59,628 nt of DNA from a virus (taxonomy: Duplodnaviria > Caudoviricetes). The position numbers were made by a program, and so were the translations under genes. Shown one piece after another: positions 14,101-55,428 of this stretch. Each line of letters starts with the position of its first letter. The stretch's first letter is position 1. Location of the stretch: positions 1 through 59,628 of IMG/VR virus record IMGVR_UViG_3300034272_000911. The stretch is one strand, 5' to 3'. The notes under the pieces were generated by a model that did no database searches, was not told the origin of the DNA, and saw only the letters and a program-made list of their open reading frames with translations.

Positions 14101-14595
14101 AATGGAGACTACGAGTACATAATCACTGACTATGACTACGGGATTGGCGACTACTACTACGTTGGCCCCGGTCTTGGCTCCTACACATACGGATGCGCGA
14201 ACTACCCGCCTACATTCACAGGCGCAATCACCGTCATAGAGACTCCGTGGATCAATGTCGGAGACGCGACTGACGGCGGCGCAGTGATCGTGTTCTACGC
14301 GACGCTGTACGCAAACATAGCCGCCGACGCCGGTCAGCACATTTACATGATGATCGATAAAGGAGACGGCAACGGCTACCTGATCTCCTCGGAGACCCTC
14401 GCCGGAACACGTACATCTGGCGGAAACACCACAAGCGCAATTCCGATTGCGATGACCTACACGGCAAACAACGTGCAAAACATTCGCATCAAGGTCGTCA
14501 CCGGAACACGAAGAGTAGACCTTTCTCCCGGAGTTGGAAGCAACCCTTCTTATCTAAGGAACATCACCATGTCAGTCATGGGAGCGAAGCGTTGA
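11158..14595 (+). CDS. Tail fibre / tip protein (FN3, coiled-coil repeats, DUF1983-like domain)
   Basis: ATGA overlap; YWVRTVSAAG (FN3), EATAR repeats, AKYTVKIDNNGHVSGFGL..FIVRADKFAI, ITSAKI-type repeats. Confidence 0.8.
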   Translation: MSATKLPQIPSFDGTNTAEVVSAIKETLEVRVGARGNALDAAVTFRDMTSLGVLRETEIGVAPDRALSARVGVEFPFGDLPELYNPATDLTTPPPPTDLKATAVFDTVYLSWSQSVFLNQSYWEVWKSFSNDLSSAALAGTSTSQFFVDIAGEDRTVFYWVRTVSAAGIKSAWNSSFGTEVKTGIDPAKLVKAIEGQILESSLSVELAARIEASFDQARASVKRITLESQNRIAAVQAEADARAAAILAEATARGAAITAEATTRQNADNSLASSITTLTASVNSNAAAIQNEATARVSGDAAEASERNTLATQMRGDYTGSDLSALTSGLIYQESIARSAQDSSLAQQITLLSAGSGDQFDWKAIWYFDTGVDGWTGNGTPTASEGHLRAANQASDAHVISPTGINAVGANYSQVRLRVRKVGTPTFAGFLWWRAVSDSTWDTARRVAITAPTFDINGIALISIIPNWTVTIDRIRIDLSSAQTAANYFEIDWVSIGRPAPGASSAQLLEEQSARAAADSAEVTARETLATSLIGQVNPSGLTLATLTSGLVHSERVARSSADSALSSDISLLSATVTGNFNTLNSAITSEATARANGDSAEASARNTLSAQLRGSYTGTDVNALSAGLIYEERVARANADSSLSSSITTLTSTVNGNTTSIQTQQSTINGIQAKYTVKIDNNGHVSGFGLTSEPNNGTPTSAFIVRADKFAIVDPASTANNLTNNPSADVVPFAVVGSAVYIKSAFIQDASISSAKIGSLAANKITAGNINAAIGINGGSVYGASLFAGGTVTVNGDGSFTANNPTFAVLGGNVDIVAPNFRVKSLAAGGTLFTPFEVVGGVVYMNTAFIRNGTITTAQIENALISNAQITSLNADKISGGTINANLLLVDNVTLDTYYDGSIGKNRLRIPDLAVTTAKIGDLSVTSGKIANLAVDALKIAGNAITLPLTYTAGDVYVSTAILKTGGGYSCGFTFVEYGNGDYEYIITDYDYGIGDYYYVGPGLGSYTYGCANYPPTFTGAITVIETPWINVGDATDGGAVIVFYATLYANIAADAGQHIYMMIDKGDGNGYLISSETLAGTRTSGGNTTSAIPIAMTYTANNVQNIRIKVVTGTRRVDLSPGVGSNPSYLRNITMSVMGAKR

Positions 14596-14960: not shown

Positions 14961-15117
14961 GCAGGACTATCGCGAACTACGCTCGATCACCTACCCCGAT
15001 GTTCGCGAACAGCTCGACGCGATCTGGAAGGGCGGATCAGAGATGGAAAAGATGCGTCGTCAAGTTGTCGGCGTGAAAGAGCTGTACCCAAAGCCAAAGA
15101 ACGGAGGTGTCAAGTGA
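14944..15117 (+). CDS. 57-aa tail-fibre chaperone-like protein (absent from ORF track)
   Basis: GTG start after GGAGG; MKFRVKQDYRELRSITYPDVREQLDAIWKGG...VKELYPKP matches the YP-x3-QLD-x2-W...VK-x2-YPK pattern. Confidence 0.7.
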   Translation: MKFRVKQDYRELRSITYPDVREQLDAIWKGGSEMEKMRRQVVGVKELYPKPKNGGVK

Positions 15118-15722
15118 ACAATCTGCTGGAAGCTTTGCAGCGCAACCTCGGCAACGTCTTGACGCCAGAGCTCGTCGCCGGGCTGCTGATGGCGTCCGAA
15201 GAAGTGAAGACACCGATCGACGTCGAGTCGATCCCGAAGACCAAGCACTGGGGCTACGCGCTCGCCGTGGAACGCCTTGAGGATGTGGTCTCCGAGATAC
15301 ACCCGATACACGTCGCGCATTGGGAAGAGACCGAGGTGCACCGCCACGGCGTCCCGCTCAATATCGACTACGAGTACATGATCAACGCCGAGCGGGCTGG
15401 GCGGTTCATGCTTTTCACCGTTCGCTCGCCGGATGGGGAGCTCGTCGGGAACTGCATGATGTACCTGACGCGCTCGACGCACACAAAGAAGCTCGTCGCC
15501 GAGGAAGACACGATCTTCATCCGCAAGGATCACCGCAAAGGGCGGCTCGGCATCAAGCTCATCCGGTACGTCGAGGACGTTCTCCGCGCCTTCGGCGTGA
15601 CCGAGATCCGCGTGACCGTGAAGACCGTCAACAGGGTCGGTGACCTGCTGCAGGGTCTCGGATACAGACACACCGCCAATCAACTCGTTAAGGTTCTGGG
15701 AGACAGCAACGATGTGCAGTGA
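15114..15722 (+). CDS. GNAT-family acetyltransferase-like protein
   Basis: EDTIFIRKDHRKGRLGIKLIRYVEDVLRAFGV...LQGLGY (acetyl-CoA motif A); sits before the ejection genes. Confidence 0.75.
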   Translation: MNNLLEALQRNLGNVLTPELVAGLLMASEEVKTPIDVESIPKTKHWGYALAVERLEDVVSEIHPIHVAHWEETEVHRHGVPLNIDYEYMINAERAGRFMLFTVRSPDGELVGNCMMYLTRSTHTKKLVAEEDTIFIRKDHRKGRLGIKLIRYVEDVLRAFGVTEIRVTVKTVNRVGDLLQGLGYRHTANQLVKVLGDSNDVQ

Positions 15723-17013
15723 CGCTCCGAAGCCGCCTGACATGACCCCGATCGCCAACGCGATGCGGGACATCGGCTCGCGCATGGAAGCATTGGGTCG
15801 AGACCAGCTGAGGTTCGGGCAGCGCCGTTACGACGAGACGCTCCCGCTGTACCAGCAGATGGTGCAGGCGAACCTCGAAGGGCAGCGCATGTCGATGCAG
15901 CTCGCCCGGGACTCGAACGCCGACCGCCAGAAGTTCCGCGCTCTCGAAGACCAGATGGTCTCGGAAGCCGCCTCGCAGGATCGGGGCGCGCTGCGCGCCG
16001 AGTACGCTGGTCGCGCCGCCTCGGATGCCGAGCAGGCGTCTGCCGCCACCCGGGCGATCGCCGTCCGCAACCTCTCGCGCATGGGCATCAACCCCAACGC
16101 CGCCCGGTTCGCCGACCTGAACAACCAGCTCGCGATGTCCGGCGCCGCCACGCGCACGGGGGCGATGAACAACGCCCGTATGGCAGCGGACGCCACGGTC
16201 GACGCCCGGCGCATGAACGCCATCAGCCTCGGTCGGAATCTCCCGGCGACCCAGCTGAGCGCGATCGGCACGGCGTCGGGCGTGGGCAACAGCAACGCGG
16301 GGCTGTTCAACAGCCAGAACGCGCCGGTGTTCCAAGGCTACGGCGGGGCGATGGCTGGCTTGCAGGGCAACCTCGGCGCCCAGAGCGGCATGGCTAACGT
16401 GATGAACATGGGCTACCAGAACGCCCTCGCCGCGGATCAGGCGAGCAACGCTGGCTTCAGCGCCCTCGGCTCGCTGGCTGGCGCGGGGCTGTCGTTCTTC
16501 TCCTCGCGGGACATGAAGGAGGGCAAGTCCCCCGTGAAGTCCGGCGAGGGTCTCGAAGCCGTGCGCGCCTTGCCGGTCGACCGCTGGAACTACAAGGGCG
16601 ACGGCAGGGAGCACGTCGGCACGTACGCCGAGGACTTCCGCCGCGAGACCGGCGTGGGCGACGGCAAGACCATCTCGGTGCAGGACGCGATCGGGGTCAC
16701 GATGGCTGCGATCAAAGACCTCGACCAAAAGGTAGAACTGCTTGCGGGTAAGCCTCGCAAGATGGCAAACGGCGGGAGCGTCGAGGGCGGCAAGAACCGT
16801 GACGGCAGCGGCGGCAAGATCCGCGGCGCTGGCACCGGCACTTCGGACAGCGTGAAAGCGTTGAACCGCGACACTGGAGAACCGATTATGCTCTCCAACG
16901 GCGAGTACATTCTTCCCGCTGACACCGTCAGGCGCGTGGGCAAACAGGCTCTCGACACTCTTGTCGAGCGCACTCACAAGCCTGTCCGCAGCTCGGCGAT
17001 TCGGAGGTCGTGA
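15712..17013 (+). CDS. Internal virion / DNA ejection protein with peptidase S74 (intramolecular chaperone) domain
   Basis: MCSDAPKPPD start; A/G/Q-rich; SSRDMKE..LPVDRWNYK..HVGTYAEDF; C-terminal GAGTGTSDSV..LSNGEYILPAD. Confidence 0.75.
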   Translation: MCSDAPKPPDMTPIANAMRDIGSRMEALGRDQLRFGQRRYDETLPLYQQMVQANLEGQRMSMQLARDSNADRQKFRALEDQMVSEAASQDRGALRAEYAGRAASDAEQASAATRAIAVRNLSRMGINPNAARFADLNNQLAMSGAATRTGAMNNARMAADATVDARRMNAISLGRNLPATQLSAIGTASGVGNSNAGLFNSQNAPVFQGYGGAMAGLQGNLGAQSGMANVMNMGYQNALAADQASNAGFSALGSLAGAGLSFFSSRDMKEGKSPVKSGEGLEAVRALPVDRWNYKGDGREHVGTYAEDFRRETGVGDGKTISVQDAIGVTMAAIKDLDQKVELLAGKPRKMANGGSVEGGKNRDGSGGKIRGAGTGTSDSVKALNRDTGEPIMLSNGEYILPADTVRRVGKQALDTLVERTHKPVRSSAIRRS

Positions 17014-18320
17014 TGGCACAGAGAACGATCGGGGCGATCCTCAACGAGGCGTCTGACAGCGCATCCCGTGACGCTGAGACCAGCCGTCGCGCAGCGATCA
17101 CCAATGTCTCGCTGAAGGGCGAGCTCTCGAATCAGCGCTATCGCGAAGCCGATTTTGCTGACAAAGAAGCGGAGCGCGCTCGGGCGAACGAGTACCGCGA
17201 CGAGCTCAGGAAGGTCTACGACAAGCACCTGTTCTTCGACGAGGTCGTTCCTTCGCAGCAGACCGGCGCCATCCCTGATGCGAGCGGAAACTTCCCTTCG
17301 CAGCAGACGATCAGGAAGTCGTACGAGCCGGGCAGCAGGGAGTGGATGAAGGGGCTCAGCTCCGCGATGGCGGAGAAGAGCTCGCTCGACCTGCGGTACG
17401 GGCTCGCGAAGCCCGAGGACATGAACCAGATGCTGGAGTTCCGCAAGAAGCTCGAAGCGACTGGCGCGAGCGAGGACTTCCTCGCTGCCATGCGCGGCGA
17501 CAAGGGCGCTGCCGCTCGCATCTCTGAGAAGTTCGGCATCTCTGGTCTCCAGTCCATCGAGACCGGGTACGACGACAACGGTCTGCTCAACTTCTTCGCG
17601 ATGACGCAGGGCGCTGGCCCGGGCGGTGCGATGGAGTCGAAGCGCGTCCCCATCGGTCACTTGATGGCTGCGTTCTCGCCCGAGATCGATTCGATGCTCA
17701 AGGCGAACCGCGAGCAGGTGAACGCCACCGACACGCTGGCGACCAGCGCGACCAGTCGTCGCAACCAGACCACGCAGGCGAATGCGAGCGCAACCTCCGC
17801 TGCTGCATCGATGCGAGACGCGATAACCAGAGAGCGCACCTACACCGCTCGCGCAGAGGCTCAGGGCGCACACAACACGCTTTCCGAGAGCGTGAGGGAG
17901 AACGCTGCGTCGTTCAGGCTCCCGCAGTTCACGACCAAGGATGCCACCACCGGCAAGGCTCAGGCTGTGCCGGACGACGAAGCGGCTGGAATCATCAGGG
18001 AGATCGGCGGCGTTCTCATCGGCTTGGATGGGAAAGACGGTGGCATCGCTTTCAACGAAGCTGCTAACGCGCTCACCGCCATCAACACCAAGACTCGCAA
18101 GGATTACGACGCGGAGCTTGCAGCTGCCCGCGCTGCCGACAGCGCCGCGAGACAGAGCGGCGACTCGAAGGTGCGCCGGGAGGCGAGCAACAGGCTGTAC
18201 GAGCTTGAGAGGAACGGCCCGCAGTGGTTCCAGAACCGGCGGCAGGTGTACCTCGAAAAGTGGCGAGCTACCGTCGCAGCCGATAGCGAGCCCTCCAAGT
18301 CAGCTCCCGTGGTGAAGTGA
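17010..18320 (+). CDS. Probable internal virion / ejection protein
   Basis: 436 aa, helical, lies between the S74 protein and the giant protein. Confidence 0.6.
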   Translation: MMAQRTIGAILNEASDSASRDAETSRRAAITNVSLKGELSNQRYREADFADKEAERARANEYRDELRKVYDKHLFFDEVVPSQQTGAIPDASGNFPSQQTIRKSYEPGSREWMKGLSSAMAEKSSLDLRYGLAKPEDMNQMLEFRKKLEATGASEDFLAAMRGDKGAAARISEKFGISGLQSIETGYDDNGLLNFFAMTQGAGPGGAMESKRVPIGHLMAAFSPEIDSMLKANREQVNATDTLATSATSRRNQTTQANASATSAAASMRDAITRERTYTARAEAQGAHNTLSESVRENAASFRLPQFTTKDATTGKAQAVPDDEAAGIIREIGGVLIGLDGKDGGIAFNEAANALTAINTKTRKDYDAELAAARAADSAARQSGDSKVRREASNRLYELERNGPQWFQNRRQVYLEKWRATVAADSEPSKSAPVVK

Positions 18321-21300
18321 TGAGCTCACTCGACCTTCTGCGATCCGTTCTTGAGGAAGACCCGACTGTCGGCACCGGCGAGGCGACTCAGAAGAACCTT
18401 CGCCGTGCGGAGGCGATCAGGCGTGAGTCCGTTCCCGGTCAGCGAGGCGCGCTCTCGACGCTGGACGACGTCCTCAACAGCTCCCCTCCCGAGCCTGCTC
18501 CCGTTCGCGCTCAGGCAATACCTGCCGCTACGGAACCACAGCAGGCGCGTGGCGAGTACCGGGCGTCCGAGTTCGCCGGGGACGCTGGTCGCAAGCTCCG
18601 CGGCGCGCTCGTAGGCGGATCGCTCGGCGTCCCGCAGGGCATTCAGGAAGCCGCCAAGGGAGGTCTGCGCGCCGGTATCAGCGGCGAGTCGCGCCCGGTT
18701 CCGTTCGCTCGCGCTGTCGAGAGCGGCATGAACTGGATCATGGACGCCACCGGCTTCCTGTCGTACGCCGAGCAGGCGAAGAAGCGCGACGAAGCCGTCG
18801 CAACGTTCGACCGTCTGGTCTCGGGCGCGAAGATCCCGGGTCTGGAAGGACTGGCTGAGTACGGCTCCCGCGTGCAGCGCGACATCGAATCCGGCATCTC
18901 GGATGAGGGCAAGCGCCGCATCGAAGGATCCACCCCGCGTGGGAACATCCTCAAGGGCGAGCTCAGCTTCGGCGACGACCCGACGCTCTCAGGCTACGCG
19001 CTGCAGTTCGCCGGGGTGCTCGGCTCAATGGCGCCCACCATCGCGACTGCCATCGCCACCCGCAGTCCGAGGGCGGCTGCTGCTGTCGGCGGCGGTCAGG
19101 CGGCGAACGAAGCCTCCAGCACCGCTCGCGAGTACATCGGCAACCTGTCTGACGAGCAGCTCACCGAGGTCAGCCCGTACTACAACACCCTCATCCGCAC
19201 GGGCATGTCCCCCGAGGAAGCGCGCCAGATCGTCACGGACAAGGCGGCTGAGACGGGCGCCGCGCTCCAAGGCATGGTCGCCGCGGTGGGCTCGCAGATC
19301 ACCGGCAAGCTCGTCACAGGCGCCTACGACAACATCCTGCGCCGAGTGGGCAGGAACGGCGCTGGCGCTACCGCAGCTGGCGCCGCGTTCGGCGCGCTCG
19401 AAGAGGGCGTGCAAGAGACGGCTGAAGGCGTCGCCTCTGACGTCGGCATCCGCTCGCAGATCACGGACAAGGAGATCGGCACCGACTCGGCGGCGAACTT
19501 CGTGCTGGGCGCCCTTGGCGGCGCGGCGGTGGGCGGCGTCAGCGGTGCACGCTCGACCCCCGCGAGCACCCTCGACTCCTACCTGAGCGGAGCCATCGAC
19601 GGCGCCCGGTCGAACCCCGAGGCTGTCACCCGGCAGGCTCGGATGGCCCTCGACCCGAATCGGGACGTGGCGCTCGACCCGCGGGCAAACGTCCGCCCTG
19701 CGGACAGCGAGCTGGGCGACGTCGCCATAACCCCGGGCGCGGCGCCAGACCAACAGTCGAGAACAGCTGTTGCGACCCAGCAGGATCGACCGGAGGACTT
19801 GCAGGGCGGTCAGCCGACCGGCACCCAGACTGTCGCTTCGGCGCAACAGCAGGGGGAGCCCAAGTCGCCCTCGCTGCAGACGCTCGACCAGATCCTGAAC
19901 AGCTCCGAGGAGAGCCTCCTCGCGCAGGTCGACGCGCAGAACCAGCCGCCGCCTGCCCAGCCGCCTGCCCCGAACCAGTCGTTCGTGGACGCCGTGGAGT
20001 CGATCAAGAGCGACCTCGGGATCGACCAGAGCGACACGCTGAGCCTGACCGAGGTCACGGACAACACCCGCCTGAAGCGCTTCAAGAGCGCGCTGGAGGG
20101 CGCTTTCGGCGTGAAGGTGCACTTCGTCGACTTCGGCGAGCAGCTGACCACTGGATCCGGTCGCCAGCTCGGCGCGTTCAACGGGTACCGCCACAACGAC
20201 ACGATCTTGGTGGACGCGAAGGACGTCGACCTGATCAACACCACGTGGCACGAACTGACCCACGTGCTCGAAACCCGGCACGCGGACGTCTACGCCAAGC
20301 TGCGTGACACGCTCGTCCCGAACTTGGATCCCGAGATCCGCCAGAACCTGATCACCGCCCTGAACCAGCGGCGGCAAGCCGAGGTCGGTCGCGACCTGAG
20401 CCAGCAGGAGCTCGACTCCGAGCTGGTGGCGTACGCGGTCGGGGACATCATGCAGAACCCCGAGTCGCTCGGGCAGATGTTCGACAGCTTCGGAGACCCC
20501 TCGGTCGCCAAGCAGTTCCGTGACATCGTCATGGACATCCTCGACAACCTCGTCAAGGTCATCCGCGGCCCCCAGTACATCAGGGAGCAGCAGGCGCTCG
20601 TCAAGGCTCGCAAGTCGGTCATCTCTGCCTTCGCCGAGTACCAGAAGCGCGAGGCTCAGAAGCAGATGGGCGCAGCCCCCGCGGCGCAGCCCACGGCGGC
20701 GCCTGCGGCGGCGCAGGTCGCCACCCCTGCCACGCCCACGGCTCCGGCTGCGACGCCTCAGGGAGCCCCTGCGGCGCCCGTCGCGCAGGCTCCTGCCGCC
20801 ACGCCCACCATCCGCTTCCCGACCGCCGAGGACATGGAGGCAGACGCCAGCGCTGGCGCCGCCCCCACCCCCAACTTCACGGTCTCGTACGCCACGCCTC
20901 AGCCGACAGCTGTGGGACAGCAGCGAACAGCTGTCAGCCCCTCGGGCTCAGAAAATGAGCCTACCGAACAGACCGCGCAGCCTGCAACGACCGGTTCTAC
21001 CGCTGGCGAAAACAGCTCCGGCGGTCAGTTCATGCGCCCGGCGGATCTCAAGGTCACCGGCGAGTTCGCTGGCGAGATGTTCCTGAGGGCTGTCCGCGAG
21101 TCCCCGGCTGAGATGACCGGGCTCTACATCGACTCCTTCGGGCGCGAGATCAACGCCGACCTCGCACGCGAGCTCTCGCCGATCTACCAGCAGAACCCCG
21201 CCGCGTTCGCGTCGTACGTCCACGAAGGCGCGTCTGCTCTGATCAAGCTGGTGTTCGACCAGCTGTTGGCGACAGCGTCGAGCACGGACGTCGTCCGCTT

Positions 21301-24300
21301 CACGGCTGGCGGCGGTGGCTCGGGCAAGGGCTTCGCGCTCGGCACGCTCAATCTCGTCAACGACAGCACGATCATCTACGACGGCACGCTCAGCAAGCTC
21401 GCGACCGCGACGAACCTGATCAACAAGGCGACCGCCGCAGGGCTCACGACCGAGGTCTACTACATCAACGCCGACGCCAAGTGGTCATTCGGCAACGCGC
21501 TCAAGCGCGGCACGACCAAGGGTCGCACGGTTCCTCTGGAGGCTCTTGCCGAGGCGCACTTCGGCGCCGCCAACGTCATCCGTCAGCTGGATGGAATGTA
21601 CAAGGGCAAGATCCTTGTGCGCGTCATCAACAACACCCCGGCGGGTGCTACCTACGGAGCGATCGATGACGTTCCGCGGTATAATCTCGACGAACTGAAA
21701 GGATGGATGTATGAAGAACTCGACCGCAGGGTCAAAGACGGATACCCGCTCAACCTCGCCGCAGGCTTCGCGCCCGACAAGTATTCTGTCGAAGGTCGCA
21801 TCGGAGAGCCCGCCGAACGAAACGATGGAGCAGTTCGAGGCGAGGTACGACGAGGAGATGCTGCGCCGCGTCGCGAGCGCGTCGAACAGCCCGAGCAACC
21901 CGCTGCTCCGGCTCGCGCAGATGGGCGCCAAGAAGGCGTAAGCCAGCCTTCTTCTGCGCCCGAGACGATACCGTCCGGTACGGAAACACAGCAACGGCAG
22001 TACGGGCGCAAGGTAGACGTCAGCCCGGAGCCTAAGCAGCCGAAGAAGCCCGAGATCAAGCGCGCCGGTCGGTTCAGCTACGAAGAGCTGCCGAGCGGTC
22101 GCATCGTCGTGCGCGAACAGGCTAATCGTGTCCGCTCCCTCGTCAGCGATATTGCCAAGGCGTCCAAGTACGACGAAGACGCGATCGCCTTCAGGGCTGT
22201 CGACGCCGCGGCTGTCGTCGAGGCGATGAAGAACGCCCCGAAGGCTGACAAGAAAATCGCCAGAGATATACAGCGTCGCCTCGGTCTCACGGACGAGGAG
22301 CTTAACGCGACCTCCCTTGCGTTCCAGACCGGCGAAGCTGGCAGGCGCGCCTTCGACACCCCGTTCGCCGGAGACCTGACCGACACAGTCGAGTACCTCC
22401 AGAATCGCCGCCTTGAGTCTGGACTCAGGACGCTCAACCTCGCGGAAGAGGCAGACCGCGAGACGCTCGCCAAGCTGGTCACCGCGGAAGTTCTTGCCGC
22501 CATCGGGGCTGGCGAGAACGCTCAGGAATGGTACGACGCGACGATCGCCAAGCTGATGAGCCTCGCCGCCCTGAAGTACCCAGAGCTGGCAACCGACCGC
22601 GAAGCTCAGATGGCTTTCCGCATCGCGATTGCGGTGTCCTCGCAGGGGCTGAACGTCAGGGACAACATCAAGTTCGCGATGGGCGTGTATGCCGACTACC
22701 GAAAGGACGGCAAGTTCCCTGAGCGCGGGTCAGGCGAAAGCGCGGCGAAGATGGCAGGGAACTTCGCGCTCGCAAACGACATGATCGGCAGGCTCGGCAG
22801 GAACGAGTTCATGCGATTCCTTGAGACGCCGTTCACTGCTGGCGAGCTCAGGGCGATGGGTCATAACGTAGACGAGCTCGTCGACGAGATGGTGCTCGGG
22901 TCTTCCATCTTCGGCCCCAAGATCGGGTTTGGCTTCTACTCAAACCTGTCTGGGAACTTCGAGCCAGTCACCATCGACATGTGGTTCATGCGAACCATTG
23001 GTCGCCTGATTGGCGCCCTTCGCGCATTCGACGAAGAGAGGTTCGCGGATCAGCTCCAAACCTTCCGCGGCTCGTTCGAGCAGACAGGCAACGACGGCAT
23101 CTACTCCAGCCAGTTCGATCCCGCCCTCGTCGAGAGGGCGAAGACAGACCGCGAAGCGGCTATCACGCTCGCAAGGTTGGTCGACTCGGCGCACGAAAGG
23201 GACTTCAGTGCCAACAAGGAGTCCTACAAAAACAAAACGCGAGTAAAGAGCAGGTTCGTCAACGCCGCGTCAGCGATGATCATCTCGCTCGACAAGCCGA
23301 AGGACGCCCCGGCGAGCGGCGGGGAGCGGCGGCTTCTGCGCGACGTTGTCCGCAAGGCGGTCGACATGGTCAAGGAAGCACACGGGAGTCGTGTGCCGCC
23401 TGCCGCTTTGCAGGCTCTCATCTGGTATCCTGAGCAGGAGCTCTACAAGTCGCTTGGGGTCGACCTCCCGGTAACCAGTCAGGACTACGCAGGGGCAATC
23501 ACTAAGCTCCTTTTGGAAGAGGGATACGATGAACGAGAACTCAGGGCAGCAGCCGAATCTGGATCAAGACGCGCACGACAGGCGTCTGTTGCAGATGTCG
23601 AGGGAAGAGATCAGGGAGCTCGCCAAGAAAACCGCGGAGGCGGTGAAGGCGAAGGGTCTCGCACGCTCACCCGAAGGGAGCGAGACCGAATTCTCGTCTC
23701 CCGGACGATTCGACGCTATCGAACGGGCGATGCACAAGCACCCCGGGCTTACAAGAGAAAAAGCTCAGGCGATGATGGACGAGTTCGGGTTCTAGATACC
23801 CCAGTCGTTGCGGAGTACCAGCCCGAGCTGGTCTTCAAGAACAGGCTCGGCACGATCGGCAAACCTGCGCCGAAGATGTACGAGCTGTCCGGTGGGGCGG
23901 CTCTGTTCCGCTCCTCCATCCTCTCCGCGAAGAGCGCCAGCCAGTTCGGCGCCGCGGTCAGCGTCTACGATGAAGCCGCCTACGCCACGATGCGCCTGTT
24001 CCTGTCCGAGGACGGCAAGTCTGGCTTCGCGCTCAAGGACGACGGCGACATCGTGTCCGTGTTCAGCGGCACCAAGGGCGCGGCGAACGCCATGCTCCAG
24101 CTCGCTGTGGACGAGGGCGGTCGCAAGCTCGACGCGTTCGACACGATCCTCCCCGAGATCTATGCGGACAACGGGTTCAGGACTGTCGCTCGCACCCCTT
24201 GGGACGAGAGCCAGAAGGAGCCGGACTGGGACAAGTCCGTCTTCCGCGAGTTCAACAACGGCGAGCCGGACGTCGTGTTCATGGTCTACGACCCTGAGAA

Positions 24301-27300
24301 CGCGTCTGAGTCTGGCGGTGAGCGGGTCGCGTCCTACGGCGACGGGCTCGACGCCCAAGCCGCTGCTCTGGAGTCACTCCCCAAGCCCAAGCCCAAGTCG
24401 ACCGGGCAGTTCAGCCGCAAGCTCGTAGAGCTCGCCGCCAACCAAGCGCCCGGGGCTCCCCAGCTCTTCGGGATCAGCGAGACCCCCACTGTTCTGCGCG
24501 CTGTCGGCGCTCCCCGACAGCTGTTCGTCATGGAGGGGAAGAACGTCGCGAAGGTGGTGAACCCGTCGTTCACCGGTCGCGTCAGCGAGGAAGACGGCGG
24601 CGTCCGTCGCAACGCGGCTGGATTCGTCGTCCAGACCGCACGTCGCATCCCGCTCACGGTCGATGAGATCTACGCCGTCCCGCGCCTGATCGCTGACCCG
24701 ATCGCCGTCATCAAGAGCGACGGCAGCAAGCCCGGTCGCCGCTACGGCTACAAGGTCATCATCGGGATGGTCAAGGACGGCTTCCCCGTGGTCGCCATCG
24801 TCCACCCCGACGTCCGCTACGGTGACAACAGAGCCTCGGAGATCGCCAGCGTCTACCCTGTGAACGAGCCCAACTCGCTCGCAGAGATGAACCGCGAGCT
24901 GAACAGCTCCAGCCTCGTCTACTTCGACAAGGGCAAGGCTATGGCGCTCGCAGCGCGCATCGGCAGGAACCTGCCGAGCCTCGCGAAGATCACGCCGACG
25001 CTCGCCAAGACGCCTAACTCCGTCCCCAGCCGCACGCTGCCTGTCATCCCCAACAGCAACTGGATGCGGAAGCTGGAGATCGGCGGCACCGGAGATCCAG
25101 TCGATCCCAACACCGGATTCGCACGCCGCGTTCCCACGCCGGGCAACCGCTTCACCCTGCCTGCTCGCACTCGCAGGGAGCAGTTCGTCGAGAACCTGTT
25201 CGAGAACCGGATGTCCCGCGTCGAGGACATCCAACAGGCTGTTGAACAGCAGGGTGGCACGCTCAGCATCGCGGACGCTCAGGGCAACGTCTTGGGCAGC
25301 ACCGACCTCTCCAGCGCCGTGCAGCGTATGCGTGGCGCCGTCCGCGGTCGCCTCGACCGCTTCAAGAAGGAGGTCGAGATCCCGATCATCGAGGAAGCCG
25401 CCAAGGCTGGCGTGAACCTCGAAGAGGTCGCTCAGTACCTGTACGCCGTGTACGCGCCGGAGCGCAACGCGATCATCCAGCAGCGCAACCCGACGCAGTT
25501 CCAGATTGACGGCGGCTCCGGTATGACGAACGCCGAGGCGACACAGATCGTTGCCAGCTTCCGCGCTCGCCGGAACTTCGCCGACATCCAGCGCATCGCC
25601 AACCGGGTGCGGAACATCTCGGTGATGACGCAGAACCTGCTCCTCGCCGAGGGACTGGTCGAGCCGCAGGTCGTCGCCCAGTGGCGAGCGGACAGCCCAA
25701 ACTACGTCCCGCTGCGCGGCTTCGAGGACTTCGACGAGTCGACCGGCAACCCGCTGGGTGCTGGGTCGTTCGGGCGAATGGATCCGCGCAACCCGTTCGC
25801 TCGCACCGCGAAGGGTCGTGAGACCCGTGCCGGGCAGATCCTTGAGAACATCCTCAAGGACTACTCGGACGCGGTCGTGCTCGCCGAGAAGAACAAGGTC
25901 TACCGCCTGCTCTTGCAGTTCGTGCAGACCAACCCAGACCCAGCGCTCTGGCAGGTCAACGCGCCGAAGGTCTCGCGCTCGTACTACAAGGGCGGCATGA
26001 CCCCGCTCGGCTACGTGCAGGGGACTGTTCGCATCGCCTTTGAGGTGAACGAAGACCCGGCGCAGACCATCGCTGTCCGCGTGAAGGGGCGCCCCGTGTT
26101 CATCCGCGTGCAGGACGAGGGGATGCTGGAAGACCTCCAGCTTACCGGAGCCATCGGCAGCGGCGAGCAGGCGAAGCTCTACTTCCGCGTGTGGTCTGGC
26201 GTGATGCAGACGCTCGCGAAGCTCCGCACCACCCTGTCCCCGGCGTTCGTGTTCATCGACGCGATCCGAAACACCGAGACCGGCGGCTTCTGGAACTTGG
26301 TGAAGTACGGGCCGAAGGTTGCCGGGAAGGCGTATGCGCGCCTGTTCAAGTCGGCACGGGTCGCTTGGAAGGCTGAGCGAGAAGGCACGTGGCAAGGCAA
26401 CAACGACACGATCACCATCCGTGAGCCGGGCCAGCCCCCGCGTACCATCACGCTCAAGGAAGCCTACGACATGTTCCGTGCTGATGGCGGCAAGGTCGGC
26501 TTCCTCGACATCAAGGAAATCGAGGACATTCAGGGCGAGATCCAGCGGATGTTCCGCGCCGCGCAGGTCGCCGGGTCTCTCGACCCGCGCACCTACGGCA
26601 CCCAGCTGGTCAGCATGATCGGCAAGGTCGAAGACCTGATGCTGGATGCGGCTGGCTCGGTCGAGATCGCGATGCGGTTTGCGACCTACATGGCTCGCCT
26701 TGAGGCTGGCGCCAACCGTCAGGAGGCGACCGACGCCGCGAAGAACGTCACGGTGAACTTCGACCGCAAGGGCAAGTGGACGCCGCACCTCGGTCTGCTC
26801 TACATGTTCGCCAACGCCAACATCCAAGGCACGCGTGCGACCTACAACCTGATCTTCAAGTCTGGCAAGGCTGGTCTCGCCCTCGGTGGCGCGCTCGCCG
26901 CTCTCGGGTACGCCATCGCCCAGCTCGGGTCTGGCGTGTCAGGCGATGACGACGAGCCGTACTGGGACAAGCAGCTCTACAAGAACACGAAGATCAAGAG
27001 CCTGCTGTTCTTCACGCCTGACGGGAACACCGTCACGATCCCGATGGCGTACGGCTCGGGCTTCTTCGTCAACCTCGGGTACGCGCTCAGCGACTTGCAG
27101 CGTGGAGTGCCTCTGGCGAAGGTCGCGGCGTTCATGCGCGACTCGTTCTTCACGCACTTCTCGCCGTTCGGCTCTCTGGAGAACCCGGCTACGTTCGCGT
27201 CTCCGACGCTGCTCGACCCGTTCGCGGTCGTGAACATGAACATGACGGAGCAGGGCATCCCGCTGATGCCGGATTCGTCGTTCGAGCCGGGCAAGCCTGA

Positions 27301-27922
27301 CAGCGAGAAGTTCTGGGCTTCGACCCGCGGCACCCTGTTCCAACAGCTGTCGAGCTACATGAACGACAGGACTGGCGGCACGGTCTGGTACAGCGGCGGC
27401 ATCGACGTCTCGCCCGAGACGCTGCGCTACGGGTACGGCTTCCTGACCGGCGGCGCTGGCGGTTTCGCACGCGACCTTGCCGACTCGATCTACCTCTCGA
27501 CTGAGGTCGGTCTGGACGCTGCCGTCGACAAGAACAAGATCCCCATCGTGCGGAGCTTCTACCAGCAGAACACGGGCAAGCAGAATCAGACCGAGTTCTT
27601 CAGGAACGCGGACGAAGCCGTGCGCGCCATGAAAGAGGCGAGCGACCTGTTCTACGCAGAGAAGGGGCGCGAGGAGAAGACCGCAGACCGGCTCCGAGAC
27701 CAGAGGCTGATCGCCGAGCTCGGCTACGCGGTGCAGAGCACGAAGCAGGCTCTAGCCGCCCACCGAGAGGAGGAGATCCGCATCGTCGAGCGGCGCACGA
27801 ACGGCAGCATCGACGCCGCGACTGCGGAGGAGATGCTCTCTCGGATCGCCAAGGAAAAGGACAAGCTCTACACGGACTTCAACCGCGAGTTCTACAGGGC
27901 GAACCCCAAGACCCCAGATTGA
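18317..27922 (+). CDS. Giant polyvalent virion/ejection protein (HExxH peptidase, zeta-toxin-like kinase, HhH-glycosylase-like, GNAT-like, MuF-C/PBECR-like, LPD38-like)
   Basis: 3201 aa. Motifs: WHELTH (~20250); INAD..AGGGGSGKG..IYDGT..R...GRTVP (~21140-21560); GPKIG..VTIDMWFMR..QALIW (~22910-23430); DGDIVSVF..GGRKLDAFDT..YADNGF..GEPDVVFM (~24040-24290); IADPIAVIKS..IASVYP (~24690-24860); VTVNFDRKG..YMFANA..IPMAYG..IDVSPE C-terminus. Confidence 0.85.
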   Translation: MMSSLDLLRSVLEEDPTVGTGEATQKNLRRAEAIRRESVPGQRGALSTLDDVLNSSPPEPAPVRAQAIPAATEPQQARGEYRASEFAGDAGRKLRGALVGGSLGVPQGIQEAAKGGLRAGISGESRPVPFARAVESGMNWIMDATGFLSYAEQAKKRDEAVATFDRLVSGAKIPGLEGLAEYGSRVQRDIESGISDEGKRRIEGSTPRGNILKGELSFGDDPTLSGYALQFAGVLGSMAPTIATAIATRSPRAAAAVGGGQAANEASSTAREYIGNLSDEQLTEVSPYYNTLIRTGMSPEEARQIVTDKAAETGAALQGMVAAVGSQITGKLVTGAYDNILRRVGRNGAGATAAGAAFGALEEGVQETAEGVASDVGIRSQITDKEIGTDSAANFVLGALGGAAVGGVSGARSTPASTLDSYLSGAIDGARSNPEAVTRQARMALDPNRDVALDPRANVRPADSELGDVAITPGAAPDQQSRTAVATQQDRPEDLQGGQPTGTQTVASAQQQGEPKSPSLQTLDQILNSSEESLLAQVDAQNQPPPAQPPAPNQSFVDAVESIKSDLGIDQSDTLSLTEVTDNTRLKRFKSALEGAFGVKVHFVDFGEQLTTGSGRQLGAFNGYRHNDTILVDAKDVDLINTTWHELTHVLETRHADVYAKLRDTLVPNLDPEIRQNLITALNQRRQAEVGRDLSQQELDSELVAYAVGDIMQNPESLGQMFDSFGDPSVAKQFRDIVMDILDNLVKVIRGPQYIREQQALVKARKSVISAFAEYQKREAQKQMGAAPAAQPTAAPAAAQVATPATPTAPAATPQGAPAAPVAQAPAATPTIRFPTAEDMEADASAGAAPTPNFTVSYATPQPTAVGQQRTAVSPSGSENEPTEQTAQPATTGSTAGENSSGGQFMRPADLKVTGEFAGEMFLRAVRESPAEMTGLYIDSFGREINADLARELSPIYQQNPAAFASYVHEGASALIKLVFDQLLATASSTDVVRFTAGGGGSGKGFALGTLNLVNDSTIIYDGTLSKLATATNLINKATAAGLTTEVYYINADAKWSFGNALKRGTTKGRTVPLEALAEAHFGAANVIRQLDGMYKGKILVRVINNTPAGATYGAIDDVPRYNLDELKGWMYEELDRRVKDGYPLNLAAGFAPDKYSVEGRIGEPAERNDGAVRGEVRRGDAAPRRERVEQPEQPAAPARADGRQEGVSQPSSAPETIPSGTETQQRQYGRKVDVSPEPKQPKKPEIKRAGRFSYEELPSGRIVVREQANRVRSLVSDIAKASKYDEDAIAFRAVDAAAVVEAMKNAPKADKKIARDIQRRLGLTDEELNATSLAFQTGEAGRRAFDTPFAGDLTDTVEYLQNRRLESGLRTLNLAEEADRETLAKLVTAEVLAAIGAGENAQEWYDATIAKLMSLAALKYPELATDREAQMAFRIAIAVSSQGLNVRDNIKFAMGVYADYRKDGKFPERGSGESAAKMAGNFALANDMIGRLGRNEFMRFLETPFTAGELRAMGHNVDELVDEMVLGSSIFGPKIGFGFYSNLSGNFEPVTIDMWFMRTIGRLIGALRAFDEERFADQLQTFRGSFEQTGNDGIYSSQFDPALVERAKTDREAAITLARLVDSAHERDFSANKESYKNKTRVKSRFVNAASAMIISLDKPKDAPASGGERRLLRDVVRKAVDMVKEAHGSRVPPAALQALIWYPEQELYKSLGVDLPVTSQDYAGAITKLLLEEGYDERELRAAAESGSRRARQASVADVEGRDQGARQENRGGGEGEGSRTLTRRERDRILVSRTIRRYRTGDAQAPRAYKRKSSGDDGRVRVLDTPVVAEYQPELVFKNRLGTIGKPAPKMYELSGGAALFRSSILSAKSASQFGAAVSVYDEAAYATMRLFLSEDGKSGFALKDDGDIVSVFSGTKGAANAMLQLAVDEGGRKLDAFDTILPEIYADNGFRTVARTPWDESQKEPDWDKSVFREFNNGEPDVVFMVYDPENASESGGERVASYGDGLDAQAAALESLPKPKPKSTGQFSRKLVELAANQAPGAPQLFGISETPTVLRAVGAPRQLFVMEGKNVAKVVNPSFTGRVSEEDGGVRRNAAGFVVQTARRIPLTVDEIYAVPRLIADPIAVIKSDGSKPGRRYGYKVIIGMVKDGFPVVAIVHPDVRYGDNRASEIASVYPVNEPNSLAEMNRELNSSSLVYFDKGKAMALAARIGRNLPSLAKITPTLAKTPNSVPSRTLPVIPNSNWMRKLEIGGTGDPVDPNTGFARRVPTPGNRFTLPARTRREQFVENLFENRMSRVEDIQQAVEQQGGTLSIADAQGNVLGSTDLSSAVQRMRGAVRGRLDRFKKEVEIPIIEEAAKAGVNLEEVAQYLYAVYAPERNAIIQQRNPTQFQIDGGSGMTNAEATQIVASFRARRNFADIQRIANRVRNISVMTQNLLLAEGLVEPQVVAQWRADSPNYVPLRGFEDFDESTGNPLGAGSFGRMDPRNPFARTAKGRETRAGQILENILKDYSDAVVLAEKNKVYRLLLQFVQTNPDPALWQVNAPKVSRSYYKGGMTPLGYVQGTVRIAFEVNEDPAQTIAVRVKGRPVFIRVQDEGMLEDLQLTGAIGSGEQAKLYFRVWSGVMQTLAKLRTTLSPAFVFIDAIRNTETGGFWNLVKYGPKVAGKAYARLFKSARVAWKAEREGTWQGNNDTITIREPGQPPRTITLKEAYDMFRADGGKVGFLDIKEIEDIQGEIQRMFRAAQVAGSLDPRTYGTQLVSMIGKVEDLMLDAAGSVEIAMRFATYMARLEAGANRQEATDAAKNVTVNFDRKGKWTPHLGLLYMFANANIQGTRATYNLIFKSGKAGLALGGALAALGYAIAQLGSGVSGDDDEPYWDKQLYKNTKIKSLLFFTPDGNTVTIPMAYGSGFFVNLGYALSDLQRGVPLAKVAAFMRDSFFTHFSPFGSLENPATFASPTLLDPFAVVNMNMTEQGIPLMPDSSFEPGKPDSEKFWASTRGTLFQQLSSYMNDRTGGTVWYSGGIDVSPETLRYGYGFLTGGAGGFARDLADSIYLSTEVGLDAAVDKNKIPIVRSFYQQNTGKQNQTEFFRNADEAVRAMKEASDLFYAEKGREEKTADRLRDQRLIAELGYAVQSTKQALAAHREEEIRIVERRTNGSIDAATAEEMLSRIAKEKDKLYTDFNREFYRANPKTPD
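21680..21685 (+). promoter_or_regulatory. Internal -10 element (TATAAT) upstream of nested ORF 1
   Basis: Perfect TATAAT 25 nt before ATG 21711, with an AAGGA RBS in between. No good -35. Confidence 0.5.
21711..21941 (+). CDS. Nested (+1 frame) 76-aa protein, candidate antitoxin for the zeta-like domain
   Basis: AAGGA RBS 7 nt upstream. The 3' half has phage-typical GC3 codons (MEQFEARYDEEMLRRVAS) while the main frame degenerates to R/G/E/P-rich linker. Confidence 0.6.
   Translation: MKNSTAGSKTDTRSTSPQASRPTSILSKVASESPPNETMEQFEARYDEEMLRRVASASNSPSNPLLRLAQMGAKKA
23529..23795 (+). CDS. Nested (+1 frame) 88-aa protein, candidate immunity protein for the glycosylase-like domain
   Basis: GAGG RBS 6 nt upstream; helical protein ending HPGLTREKAQAMMDEFGF; the main frame here is an R/G-rich linker. 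Confidence 0.7.
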   Translation: MNENSGQQPNLDQDAHDRRLLQMSREEIRELAKKTAEAVKAKGLARSPEGSETEFSSPGRFDAIERAMHKHPGLTREKAQAMMDEFGF

Positions 27923-28254
27923 CACAGGAGGAAACCGTGACGCTGAAGAGCGCCATACCGAAGAGCTTCCAGCTGTGCGGTCACCAGATCGCCGTCCGCA
28001 TCGTCCCGAAGCCGAAGTGGCAGTACAAAGGCGACGTCGGCTTCTGGGACTACGCGAACCTGAGGATCGATCTCGTCGCCGGGCAGCAGCCTAGCGTCGT
28101 GATGCAGACCTTCTGCCATGAGTGGGCGCACGCCATGCTGGAGATGATGGCTCACCCGCTCGCCCGAGATGAGCGATTCGTCGACCAGCTCGGACATCTG
28201 TTGCAACAGTCCCTCTCAACCTTCGAGTACCCCAATGCAGCCAAAGGCAAGTGA
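27919..28254 (+). CDS. Small HExxH zinc metallopeptidase-like protein
   Basis: QTFCHEWAHAML..DERFV; start may be GTG 27937 after GGAGG. Confidence 0.7.
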   Translation: MTQEETVTLKSAIPKSFQLCGHQIAVRIVPKPKWQYKGDVGFWDYANLRIDLVAGQQPSVVMQTFCHEWAHAMLEMMAHPLARDERFVDQLGHLLQQSLSTFEYPNAAKGK

Positions 28255-29335
28255 CGCAGAGATCATCGCAGCCCTGACCGCCAACCGCGGAGTCAGGGTT
28301 CTCGCCGCCCAGACCCTCGGGATCGCCCTGAGGACGCTCCAGTCGCGCATCATCGGGCTGAAGTCCAAGGGCGTCGCCATCCCCGAGTCGAGCTACCAAG
28401 GACACAAGGACTACCTCGCCCGCGTCGGCGACCCGCCGCCGAGACCGCCTCCGCAGCAGGAGCTGGAGTTCCCCCGCCTGCCGGACGGCAAGATCGACGT
28501 GCGCGAGCTCATCGAGCGGCGCAAGCGCGAGTTCGACCGCAAGGACGAGGCGGCTCAGGCGCGCAAGCTCATCCCCATCAAGGTCAAGACCGACCAGCCG
28601 ATCGCCGTCTGCCTGATGGGTGACCCGCACGTCGACGACCCCGGCACCGATCTGGGCGCTCTGGAGCGCGAGATGGAGGTCATCAAGGCGACCCCGGGCA
28701 TGTACGCCGGGTGCGTCGGAGACCTCCAGAACAACTGGATAGGGCGTCTGGCGAGGCTCTACGCGGAGCAGGAGACCACGGCGAGCCAGTCATGGCAGCT
28801 GGTCGAGTGGTTCGTGAACGACCTGTCCGGCAAGTGGCTGTTCATGGTCTCGGGGAACCATGACCACTGGGCGGGGTCAGGCGACCCGCTGCGCTGGATC
28901 CAGCGGCAGGCGGCGGTCGACATGACCGGCGACCACACCGTCAGGCTCGCCCTGCGGTTCGCGAACGGCGCGGAAGTCCGCATCGTCGCCCGGCACGACT
29001 TCCCCGGGAACAGCATGTGGAACCCCAGCCACGGGCAGCTGCGCGCCGCCCACCTGACCCACCACGACCACGTGCTGGTCTCGGGTCACAAGCACACCGG
29101 GGGCTACCAGCTCATCCGTGTGCCAGCCACGGGGATGCTCGCCCACTGCCTCCAGCTCGGCGCCTACAAGCGCCACGACGCCTACGCGGACGCGCTGGGG
29201 CTCCCGCCGCGGATGATCTCCCCCAGCGCCACGGTCATCATCGACCCGAAGGCGAACGAGCTCGGGATCGTCAGGGTGGAGCACGACATCGAAGCGGCGG
29301 CAGACTGGCTCACGTGGAGGCGAAGACGGGCGTAG
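28235..29335 (+). CDS. Calcineurin-like metallophosphoesterase with N-terminal HTH
   Basis: GDPH, GDLQN, GNHD, RH, GHKH motifs; N-terminal AAQTLGIALRTL HTH. Confidence 0.85.
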   Translation: MQPKASDAEIIAALTANRGVRVLAAQTLGIALRTLQSRIIGLKSKGVAIPESSYQGHKDYLARVGDPPPRPPPQQELEFPRLPDGKIDVRELIERRKREFDRKDEAAQARKLIPIKVKTDQPIAVCLMGDPHVDDPGTDLGALEREMEVIKATPGMYAGCVGDLQNNWIGRLARLYAEQETTASQSWQLVEWFVNDLSGKWLFMVSGNHDHWAGSGDPLRWIQRQAAVDMTGDHTVRLALRFANGAEVRIVARHDFPGNSMWNPSHGQLRAAHLTHHDHVLVSGHKHTGGYQLIRVPATGMLAHCLQLGAYKRHDAYADALGLPPRMISPSATVIIDPKANELGIVRVEHDIEAAADWLTWRRRRA

Positions 29336-51274: not shown

Positions 51275-51393
51275 AGCCGCTGCCGGAGTTCAACTGGAAC
51301 GGCGCCGAGAACACCTTCGAGTGGATCCTGAAGACCGCAGAGGAAGCGCGGCGTGAGCGCGAGCCCACGCTCCTGAGCAAGAGGCTCTGGTGA
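51271..51393 (+). CDS. 40-aa hypothetical protein
   Basis: GTGA overlaps at both ends; MKPLPEFNWNGAENTFEWILK. Confidence 0.45.
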   Translation: MKPLPEFNWNGAENTFEWILKTAEEARREREPTLLSKRLW

Positions 51394-52835: not shown

Positions 52836-52841
52836 TCCGTC

Positions 52842-54815: not shown

Positions 54816-55129
54816 TGGGCAAGCTGACTTCGTTCGCGACCGGCATGGGCGAGGGTTACCTCGCTGGCAAGCGGTACAAGGACAACAAGGCGCGTCAGGA
54901 GCGTCAGGACGCGATCATGGAGAAGGTGCTCGCCGCCGACTCTTCGACCGCCGCGCCCGCTGCCGCCCCCGCCGAGGAGGAGGAAAAGCCCCTCTGGAAG
55001 CGGATGTTTGGCATGAAGGACGGTGGCGCTGTCCGCGGCTACGCCAACGGCGGCATGATCGGCGACAACACGCCGATGCCGAGCCACAGCTGCAAGATGA
55101 GCTGGCAGCGTCAGTCGTTCAAGAAGTGA
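54812..55129 (+). CDS. Small head-associated protein with xxGG motifs
   Basis: MKDGGAVRGYANGGMIG. Confidence 0.6.
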   Translation: MMGKLTSFATGMGEGYLAGKRYKDNKARQERQDAIMEKVLAADSSTAAPAAAPAEEEEKPLWKRMFGMKDGGAVRGYANGGMIGDNTPMPSHSCKMSWQRQSFKK

Positions 55130-55329
55130 ACCAGTTTCCCCGCGAGCTTGTCGAGCGCCTGAGACGGGACTCGGACGCGCAGCAACTCGCGGCACAGTTG
55201 ACGCAGTTCAGAGAGGAGAAGCGAGTCGATCTGGAGGACGCGACGGCGTCTGTCCAGATCCACAAGCTGCAAGGCTACTGCCAAGCCCTCACTGACCTGA
55301 TCAAACTGCTCTCACCCGAGGGCAGATAA
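55126..55329 (+). CDS. Small conserved protein downstream of portal
   Basis: IHKLQGYCQALTDLIKL; typical position. Confidence 0.6.
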   Translation: MNQFPRELVERLRRDSDAQQLAAQLTQFREEKRVDLEDATASVQIHKLQGYCQALTDLIKLLSPEGR

Positions 55330-55428
55330 CCCCGCCGGAGGTTTTCCGGCACAACCCGCCCTGACTCCAGTCACGTAGGCAGAGACTCCGACGAGGCTCT
55401 CTTGCGCGTAGGACACGGCTCAGAGGAT

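Follow-up and report, generated by a model that had tools for sequence, protein, structure and literature searches.

Why would a phage keep a small gene inside the reading frame of one of its own giant virion proteins, directly after a domain that resembles a DNA glycosylase? The question is raised by the IMG/VR virus record IMGVR_UViG_3300034272_000911 (Duplodnaviria; Caudoviricetes), a complete record of 59,628 bp with direct terminal repeats and 63.7% GC, the whole of which is referred to here as the window. A giant open reading frame (ORF) at 18317..27922 (+) encodes a polyvalent virion protein of 3201 amino acids (aa). Within it lies a domain with a probable helix-hairpin-helix (HhH)-GPD fold (22343..23533, +; aa 1343-1739), and at the end of this domain begins an 88-aa ORF in the +1 frame relative to the giant ORF (23529..23795, +). 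With a probability of roughly 45%, we infer an effector with glycosylase-like chemistry that is ejected into the host, together with a small, separately translated protein that caps or inhibits it.

The nested +1 gene

The nested ORF, which ends in ...HPGLTREKAQAMMDEFGF, is present as the original prediction had it, with its start about 35 codons past the main-frame string QALIW. A Shine-Dalgarno (SD)-like GAGGG (23519-23523, +), previously noted as a GAGG ribosome-binding site, stands 5 nt before the nested ATG and is read in the main frame as Glu-Glu-Gly; motif and start codon together are built into the main-frame codons ...Glu-Glu-Gly-Tyr-Asp-Glu.... A -10 element had also been proposed at 23503-23508. 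The letters TAAGCT are present there, but a promoter scan of 23200-24000 returned no sigma-70-like site, and a gene inside a long mRNA needs no promoter of its own. The main frame across the overlap (23528..23797, +) is an Arg/Gly/Glu-rich inter-domain linker on which the small gene is overprinted. Its GC content at codon positions 1/2/3 is 0.74/0.61/0.42, against 0.65/0.47/0.83 gene-wide, and the nested frame's own values are 0.61/0.42/0.74. Such a dip in GC at third codon positions (GC3) of the main frame is found in two stretches only of the giant gene, the nested ORF and 21707-22000.

The nested protein, hereafter the partner, can be divided in two. Residues 2-45 (23532..23663, +), with an acidic NLDQDAHD motif and an amphipathic helix, form a conserved core and the predicted interface with the domain. 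The C-terminal module (23694..23792, +; SSPGRFDAIERAMHKHPGLTREKAQAMMDEFGF) is lineage-restricted, being present in P0002, P0003 and L004-L010, with similar tails in L065-67, L079 and L092. Attention had earlier been drawn to an HPGLT..E.A motif, which belongs to the C-terminal part and is neither widely conserved nor part of the interface; it is residues 2-45 that are both.

Conservation was assessed in loci gathered by scanning IMG/VR with an alignment of the domain, which confirmed 560 of 599 candidate stretches, of which the best 80 loci were kept. An ATG-started +1 ORF is present at the domain end in 77 of these 80 loci (47-104 aa, median 60, counted from the ATG nearest the domain end), and in 48 of the 77 the ATG is at exactly the position seen in the window. 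SD-like motifs precede the nested ATG in 61/77 loci, compared with 388 of 2938 (13.2%) other +1-frame ATGs of the same loci, and across loci SD motif and ATG are built from main-frame codons of the form (K/E)-E-G-(Y/F)-(D/N)-x. Main-frame GC3 is lower in the overlap than upstream of it in 74 of 78 cases (the 77 loci and the window). The three exceptions are each of a different kind: L038 is without the ORF, L068 carries the motif in the main frame as a C-terminal tail, and in L081 the giant ORF stops 3 codons past the domain and the motif opens a separate gene of 146 aa.

A second scan, seeded by an alignment of 15 sequences around distant stand-alone relatives of the domain (A3), confirmed 553 of 599 stretches; 80 loci were kept, 13 repeating contigs of the first set were dropped and 67 were analysed. 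A hidden Markov model (HMM) of the small module was then iterated over 148 locus records (80, 67 and the window), in which the module directly follows the domain in 144. All 144 hits fall within -300..+400 nt of the domain end and none elsewhere in 1.11 Mb searched in six frames, which speaks for specificity rather than independent discovery because the HMM was trained on the same loci. After removal of 12 more repeated contigs, the linkage of peptide and domain that the original prediction had expected is found in 132 of 136 contigs. The module is nested in the +1 frame in 103 contigs, in 78 of which the main ORF continues for at least 150 codons. It is a downstream gene in 25 (18 in +2, 7 in +1), behind an SD motif and with an ATG or GTG start overlapping the main stop (ATGA/GTGA). 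It lies in frame in 4 contigs and is lacking in 4, of which L038 and L150 are real absences and L088 and L140 run off the contig. The module is also an in-frame tail in P0126, and it forms the N-terminus of large downstream proteins at L118:3649-6138 (>830 aa), L138:1208-2383 (392 aa) and L083:2694-3191 (166 aa). In these last three loci [FY]APW..DPDPPDYW... begins a multi-domain protein right after the domain gene, as if a polyvalent protein had been split there.

These arrangements bear on how the +1 ORF is reached. A programmed +1 ribosomal frameshift would yield a truncated giant protein ending with the peptide. This would agree with the existence of in-frame versions and with the window itself, where no +1 stop occurs in the 18 codons preceding the ATG and a CTT-TTG-G run is present among them. 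It is nevertheless very improbable and was rejected as a candidate: the nested ATG and its SD motif are conserved, a +1 stop lies no more than 5 codons before the ATG in 41 of the 77 loci, and the separate-gene versions use ATGA/GTGA coupling. A conserved slippery site was not noticed, though no systematic search for one was made.

Selection was examined in the ORF's first 126 nt with 127 pairs of loci at 3-30% difference, a phase-matched block inside the domain serving as control. By +1 codon position (1/2/3), the overlap has substitution shares of 0.325/0.218/0.458 and the control 0.128/0.647/0.225. For 15 disjoint pairs the corresponding values are 0.341/0.213/0.446 and 0.169/0.608/0.223. 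Main-frame third positions, normally the freest, are therefore the most constrained in the overlap, and the third positions of the +1 frame are the freest. At 70-85% nucleotide identity the +1 aa identity (0.706) exceeds that of the main frame (0.602) in 63 of 65 pairs, a comparison biased towards the +1 frame by an alignment built on the +1 peptides. Among distant clades the +1 peptides keep [FY]APW..DPD...MS.E..A..L..L..K over a main frame that is low-complexity Gly/Arg/Glu/Ala.

Taken on sequence evidence, the nested ORF is a functional overlapping gene, with a conserved position, its own start and SD motif, and purifying selection in its own frame; that it is a real, separately translated gene we hold with high confidence. 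The contrary view, that it is a by-product, either a stop-free +1 frame thrown up by an Arg/Gly/Glu-rich linker or a sequencing frameshift, is the least credible of the explanations considered. Off-frame ORFs are common in this 63.7% GC genome, and gene callers almost never report this one: a profile search gave 10 proteins at E<=1e-3 among 1140 candidates (5.8 billion proteins). Neither point accounts for main-frame third positions being the most conserved in the overlap, for a motif conserved in the +1 frame where the main frame is not, or for a module that is elsewhere an ordinary gene or an in-frame element. Loci with a GC content of 38-48% retain the ORF as well, at rank 1 to 6 among their ~50-170 +1 runs. 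A composition artefact is thus contradicted by the motif and the substitution pattern, and a sequencing frameshift was rejected as its source since the arrangement recurs in 103 contigs.

Single-sequence searches with the nested protein gave two called homologues, P0002 (66% identity) and P0003 (56%), and tblastn against 50,697 phage records gave one record, at E 0.5. A called homologue of 92 aa, P0155 (E 1.3e-10), lies on a 526-kb contig, which points to a prophage or cellular genome as another carrier of the domain-partner pair. A literature search found no description of genes overprinted in polyvalent proteins.

The glycosylase-like domain

What, then, is the domain to which this gene is attached? 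It had been proposed to be an HhH DNA glycosylase on the strength of short strings, all of which are found in the main-frame translation: EWYDAT (nt 22520), AVSSQG (22631), GPKIGFG (22913), VTIDMWFMR (22967) and LQALIWYP (23408). The domain has 1822 relatives at E<=1e-3 and 566 at E<=1e-30 in an exhaustive HMMER search of 1.84 billion representatives, the 1822 being counted as clusters at 50% identity. The majority fall in the giant range of 1500-4400 aa; stand-alone proteins of 337-700 aa also occur.

Two AlphaFold2 models were obtained. Model 1, from an alignment of 30 domain sequences (A1), is all-alpha, with a predicted local distance difference test (pLDDT) score of 90.6 and a predicted template modelling (pTM) score of 0.83. 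A wide search of this model with VIA against 48,161 PDB representatives returned, in its first 23 rows, only HhH-GPD glycosylases or fold relatives, at Z 11.2-5.6. These include Tm1821 Ogg (3n0u; Z 11.2, 197 of 209 residues aligned at a root-mean-square deviation of 4.0), MagIII (1pu6; Z 9.6), NTHL1 (7rdt; Z 9.2), EndoIII (2abk; Z 8.5), OGG1 (Z 8.1) and AlkA (Z 5.6). Also within these rows are the queuine salvage enzyme DUF2419 and gp46 of phage PaMx11, which share the HhH-GPD fold. From row 24 on, the matches are unrelated helical pieces at Z<=5.1, covering only a helical insertion within the fold (23027..23296, +; model residues 229-318). Model 2, of the relative P0086 (34% identity; alignment A3; pLDDT 85.4, pTM 0.82), gave the same enzymes in rows 1-22 and 24, at Z 9.6-5.8. 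Helical proteins can reach Z ~13 by arrangement alone, and so the assignment rests on the exclusivity and reproducibility of the list and not on the height of the scores.

Several results weigh against this assignment. The best scores of the two models, 11.2 and 9.6, are below the value of ~13 of which the tool warns. Neither model has a Foldseek match in the PDB at E<=1e-3, the best E values being 0.12 and 0.14 (annexins and a terpene synthase). PF00730 (HhH-GPD) has no hit with E<=10 in the complete protein or in the domain, and its HMM has no match in the window, against matches in 14 of 14 control genomes. The probability given by hhalign for A1 against E. coli Nth (EndoIII) is 0.2, and PDB searches with the domain sequence and profile returned chance matches alone (E 0.12, 0.2). 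With these family, profile and sequence searches empty, the domain is best filed as having the HhH-GPD fold and not as a member of the Pfam family; at the level of fold, where two models agree, the assignment is probable. The glycosylase domain of the original prediction is in this sense upheld as a fold and not as a recognisable family. Two outcomes had been named in advance as refuting that prediction, a domain without the HhH fold and peptide homologues never linked to it, and neither was obtained.

The part of the domain that carries its signature is at 22901..23005 (+; SSIFGPKIGFGFYSNLSGNFEPVTIDMWFMRTIGR) and consists of the HhH, a Gly/Pro loop and an Asp. In model 1 it is formed by helix 186-190, the hairpin G191-P-K193, helix 194-202, a Gly/Pro-containing loop SGNFEPVTI and D212, which starts helix 213-223 (domain numbering; adding 1342 gives protein numbering). 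The candidate catalytic residues are Lys1535 (K193; nt 22919-22921, +) and Asp1554 (D212; nt 22976-22978, +). Both are invariant in the 30 sequences of A1 and the 15 of A3; the full set invariant in A1 is F141, N145, S187, G191, K193, G195, G197, F198, N201, L202, G204, T210, D212, W214, R221, W361, Y362 and Y382. The spacing from Lys to Asp is 19 in all 145 locus records matched by a regular expression for the motif (of 147; the other two escaped the expression), close to the 18 between K120 and D138 in E. coli EndoIII. As candidates placed by model and motif, K1535 and D1554 have the layout of the catalytic pair of bifunctional glycosylase/AP-lyases. Because of this layout the domain is most likely an enzyme that would flip and excise, or otherwise process, a base in the DNA of the newly infected cell.

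The same fold could serve another chemistry, either base hypermodification by a transferase in the manner of PaMx11 gp46 or, as in Qng1/DUF2419, hydrolysis of a nucleoside or nucleotide; it could also do no more than bind DNA. Such enzymes are indeed among the VIA matches: 8z2m (gp46, a 5-PmdU glycinyltransferase) at Z 6.7 and 6.8, and 7u07/7ugk (the queuine salvage enzyme) at Z 9.0 and 8.4-8.5. The best matches are DNA glycosylases, though, the Lys...Asp spacing of 19 resembles that of the bifunctional glycosylases, and a transferase carried in the virion would depend on finding a nucleotide-activated substrate in the new host. We consider this explanation unlikely.

In comparison with the known HhH-GPD glycosylases (Tm1821 Ogg, MagIII, EndoIII/NTHL1, MutY, OGG1 and AlkA), the domain has the same predicted two-lobed all-alpha fold and the same order of an HhH with an invariant Lys, a Gly/Pro-rich loop and an invariant Asp starting the next helix. 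It differs from them in lacking detectable sequence or profile similarity, in its size (~390 aa, with a 90-residue helical insertion), in its place inside a virion polyprotein and in its dedicated small partner; its activity is a prediction.

Under other search methods the domain likewise stands apart. No family of Pfam, NCBIfam, PHROGs or PADLOC scored above threshold for the domain, its stand-alone relatives or the nested protein. The sole curated family with any signal is DUF7178, which has no assigned function and whose name brought up no mention in a literature search. It matches the window domain at GPKIG...VTIDMWFMR (E 0.12, 12.7 bits) and the relative P0149 (E 7.2e-5, 23.2 bits), both below its gathering threshold of 27, and it is carried by 11% of the members of a nearby ESM-Atlas cluster. 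The ESM Atlas search otherwise gave hypothetical viral clusters, and a BFVD search matched only other unannotated polyvalent proteins. Blastn of 22300-24100 against the 50,697 phage records gave three records, each covering 4-6% of the query (Microbacterium phage minor capsid genes). Single-sequence queries of IMG/VR gave no confirmed relative, and alignments were required. The domain is thus previously unnamed and very widespread, among the most frequent of the unnamed domains in injected phage proteins, and is without a curated model. It was not found described as a glycosylase in the literature covered, which leaves aside the supplementary domain lists of Iyer et al., where it may have an LPD number.

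The domain and its partner

Whether the small protein acts on the domain was approached by complex prediction from A1 and an alignment of 44 nested peptides (A2), in which Q13 is invariant. The prediction scored 0.80 (runs 0.80, 0.80 and 0.82), and the best of three controls scored 0.01; among solved complexes 58 of 80 attain that mark, as do 2 of 110 mismatched pairs, counts that are only a rough guide for custom alignments such as these. The runs share at least 58% of their contacts (192-205 in number), with a partner pLDDT of 61-63. In the predicted complex, partner residues 2-45 touch domain residues 100-108, 133-162, 168-177, 189-198, 210-215, 321-323, 357, 361 and 375-382. This interface takes in the HhH hairpin with K193, the D212 stretch and most of the other invariant residues, and Q13 of the partner touches residues 191-192. 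Binding of the partner to the domain is supported by these predictions with reasonable confidence.

The hairpin of known HhH-GPD enzymes grips the backbone of the DNA, and their Asp is located in the base pocket, so that a partner seated over hairpin and Lys/Asp cleft would keep DNA out. The nested protein had been thought to be an inhibitor or partner of the domain; the predicted binding over the cleft supports the partner, and the inhibitor we infer. That it inhibits rather than serves as a cofactor we put just short of an even chance.

Consistent with an inhibitor, the partner could keep the domain silent in the producing cell by capping it. The giant protein would probably be threaded out of the capsid unfolded, at which point a non-covalent cap would be stripped off and left behind, and the domain would refold uncapped, and armed, in the next host. 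A role as cap, inhibitor or immunity factor is the most likely one because a separate polypeptide would be stripped off during threading. A cap that is left behind would also account for selection keeping the module separate in 128 of 136 contigs, even by overprinting. In these 128 contigs the partner is nested, or coupled directly downstream of the domain, the adjacent and co-translated placing of genes that marks toxin-antidote pairs.

Comparable pairs are zeta-epsilon (PezT-PezA), colicins with their immunity proteins, and the phage glycosylase inhibitors Ugi and p56. As in these, a small, partly acidic protein is translationally coupled to an adjacent enzyme and, here by prediction, sits over the active site. 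Unlike them, the candidate antidote is overprinted inside the effector's own ORF, and its inhibition of a toxic effector is a proposal; Ugi and p56, moreover, target the host UDG and not a phage enzyme. Rz/Rz1 of phage lambda is a familiar instance of a small gene that is entirely contained in a larger one, in its +1 frame, and whose product binds that of the larger gene. The nested gene described here differs in lying on an inter-domain linker of a 3201-aa effector, in being specific to one domain, and in occurring in other lineages as an ordinary downstream gene or in frame. What is new is a probable HhH-GPD-fold family with an embedded gene and the proposed logic of an effector and its antidote, a combination that is unusual and widely conserved.

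The large interface invites a different explanation, in which the small protein belongs to the enzyme as an integral part with a gene of its own. As a cofactor subunit or a C-terminal element split from the rest, it would complete the cleft or activate it, perhaps with conserved acidic or His residues (DQDxHD or DPD). In favour of this are the 192-205 contacts over most invariant residues and the polar or acidic nature of the partner's conserved residues. In 4 of 136 contigs, and likewise in P0126, the module is fused in frame to the end of the domain, as a part of one fold would be. The odds are clearly against it all the same. A separate polypeptide is kept in 128 of 136 contigs despite the cost of overprinting, a non-covalent subunit would probably be lost on ejection and leave the ejected domain inactive, and the matched HhH-GPD structures align to the domain alone, without an extra chain.

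The proteins headed by the module in L118, L138 and L083 suggest yet another role, that of a docking device. The peptide would be a tag carrying other proteins, or the next polyvalent segment, into the capsid, and the cleft would be its binding site. The extra C-terminal module of the window's partner, outside the interface, would fit a cargo. Most versions of the small protein, though, are 47-63 aa and comprise the binding core only, with no cargo, and an invariant Lys and Asp in the HhH-GPD layout argue for catalysis; a docking device is distinctly unlikely.

Some observations count against the cap or inhibitor that we prefer. The 4 of 136 contigs with the module in frame fit the competing explanations better, and a module at the N-terminus of large proteins, as in L118 and L138, suits an inhibitor that is left behind less well. 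The C-terminal 43 residues of the window's partner, including the HPGLT motif, lie outside the predicted interface and are left unexplained by it. The pair is described here from sequence and predicted structure. In addition, the loci are metagenomic and many of the contigs closely related, so that locus and contig counts do not amount to independent events.

The giant virion protein and a second +1 ORF

The giant ORF is a polyvalent protein, combining unrelated effector domains with an LPD domain among virion genes. Pfam matches are LPD38 at aa 2884-3060 (E 5.7e-18), MuF_C at 2112-2208 (1.5e-11) and Zeta_toxin at 1019-1096 (1.6e-10). In PHROGs, aa 231-532 match family 2206 ('virion RNA polymerase') and the C-terminal third matches three large families of unknown function. 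It is preceded by genes for an internal virion protein (8576-11161), a tail fibre (11140-14595) and a virion structural protein (15640-17013); terminase, portal/adaptor and major head genes are at 51390-57433. From the domains LPD38, MuF_C and Zeta_toxin and from the neighbouring structural module, the giant protein would travel inside the virion and be ejected along with the DNA into the host, and the placing of the glycosylase-like domain in a virion protein by the original prediction agrees with this context. The 'polyvalent protein' type was described for phages and conjugative elements by Iyer et al. 2017 (PMC5512222), whose proteins resemble the giant ORF in combining LPD38, MuF_C and Zeta-toxin domains among virion genes. 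The paper's main text uses none of the terms 'glycosylase', 'overlapping' and 'frameshift'. The glycosylase-like domain matches no Pfam LPD model.

Additional features of the giant protein and its surroundings can be mentioned. A conserved block at ~19900-20700 contains an HExxH metallopeptidase-like motif, WHELTHV, at aa 644 (nt 20246); its Pfam match is weak (YgjP-like, E 0.13), and it may correspond to the polyvalent-protein metallopeptidase described by Iyer et al. The region after the nested ORF (23798-24420, aa ~1828-2035) has PHROG 2563, of unknown function, at aa 1875-1989 and no Pfam match, and its BFVD relatives are labelled NAT_SF, that is, acetyltransferase-like. An acetyltransferase-like gene (PHROG 1249) lies among the virion genes at 15114-15722, and the giant ORF is followed directly, at 28169-29335, by one resembling a DNA repair exonuclease (PHROG 7339).

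The second GC3 dip of the giant gene, at 21707-22000 (main-frame GC3 0.50-0.58), coincides with another overprinted ORF in the +1 frame (21711-21941, +; 76 aa, MKNSTAGSK...), which starts 10 nt before the end of the Zeta-toxin-like domain. A scan with this domain confirmed 81 of 208 stretches, and 80 loci were kept; 47 of these and the window were examined, the other 33 being partly near-duplicates or having short flanks. In all 48 an ATG- or GTG-started +1 ORF of 44-120 aa with shared motifs is present at the end of the Zeta domain. Substitutions in 10 close pairs are distributed 0.21/0.30/0.50 by +1 codon position, against 0.125/0.63/0.25 in the domain, a test weakened by several +1 ORFs whose greater part lies past the main stop. 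Zeta toxins of the classical kind are paired with a small antitoxin. By analogy the second +1 ORF may be an epsilon-like antidote, and the parallel would favour an antidote reading of the nested gene as well. A wider generalisation is tentative, with the odds somewhat against it: antidote genes specific to one domain would be overprinted in the +1 frame on the linkers after dangerous domains, their caps being left behind so that the effector arrives armed, twice in this gene and in hundreds of uncultured phages.

For the phages concerned, these results supply a probable fold and a candidate catalytic pair (K1535, D1554) for a widespread unnamed domain (1822 clusters), and a glycosylase-like domain in an injected protein points to excision or processing of DNA bases as a weapon of early infection. 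They also bring to light a conserved gene missed by standard gene callers, with 10 called homologues in 5.8 billion proteins against ~100 contigs with the ORF. One module that is found overprinted, separate and fused offers an unusually clear natural series for a gene moving into an overlapping frame. If the small protein is indeed a safety catch, it would explain how phages can produce virion cargo that is toxic or damages DNA and still replicate unharmed, and it would provide ready-made enzyme-inhibitor pairs for study. Detachable antidotes, if they are real, would make up a large class of unannotated genes and a general architecture, the effector with a built-in, detachable safety catch.

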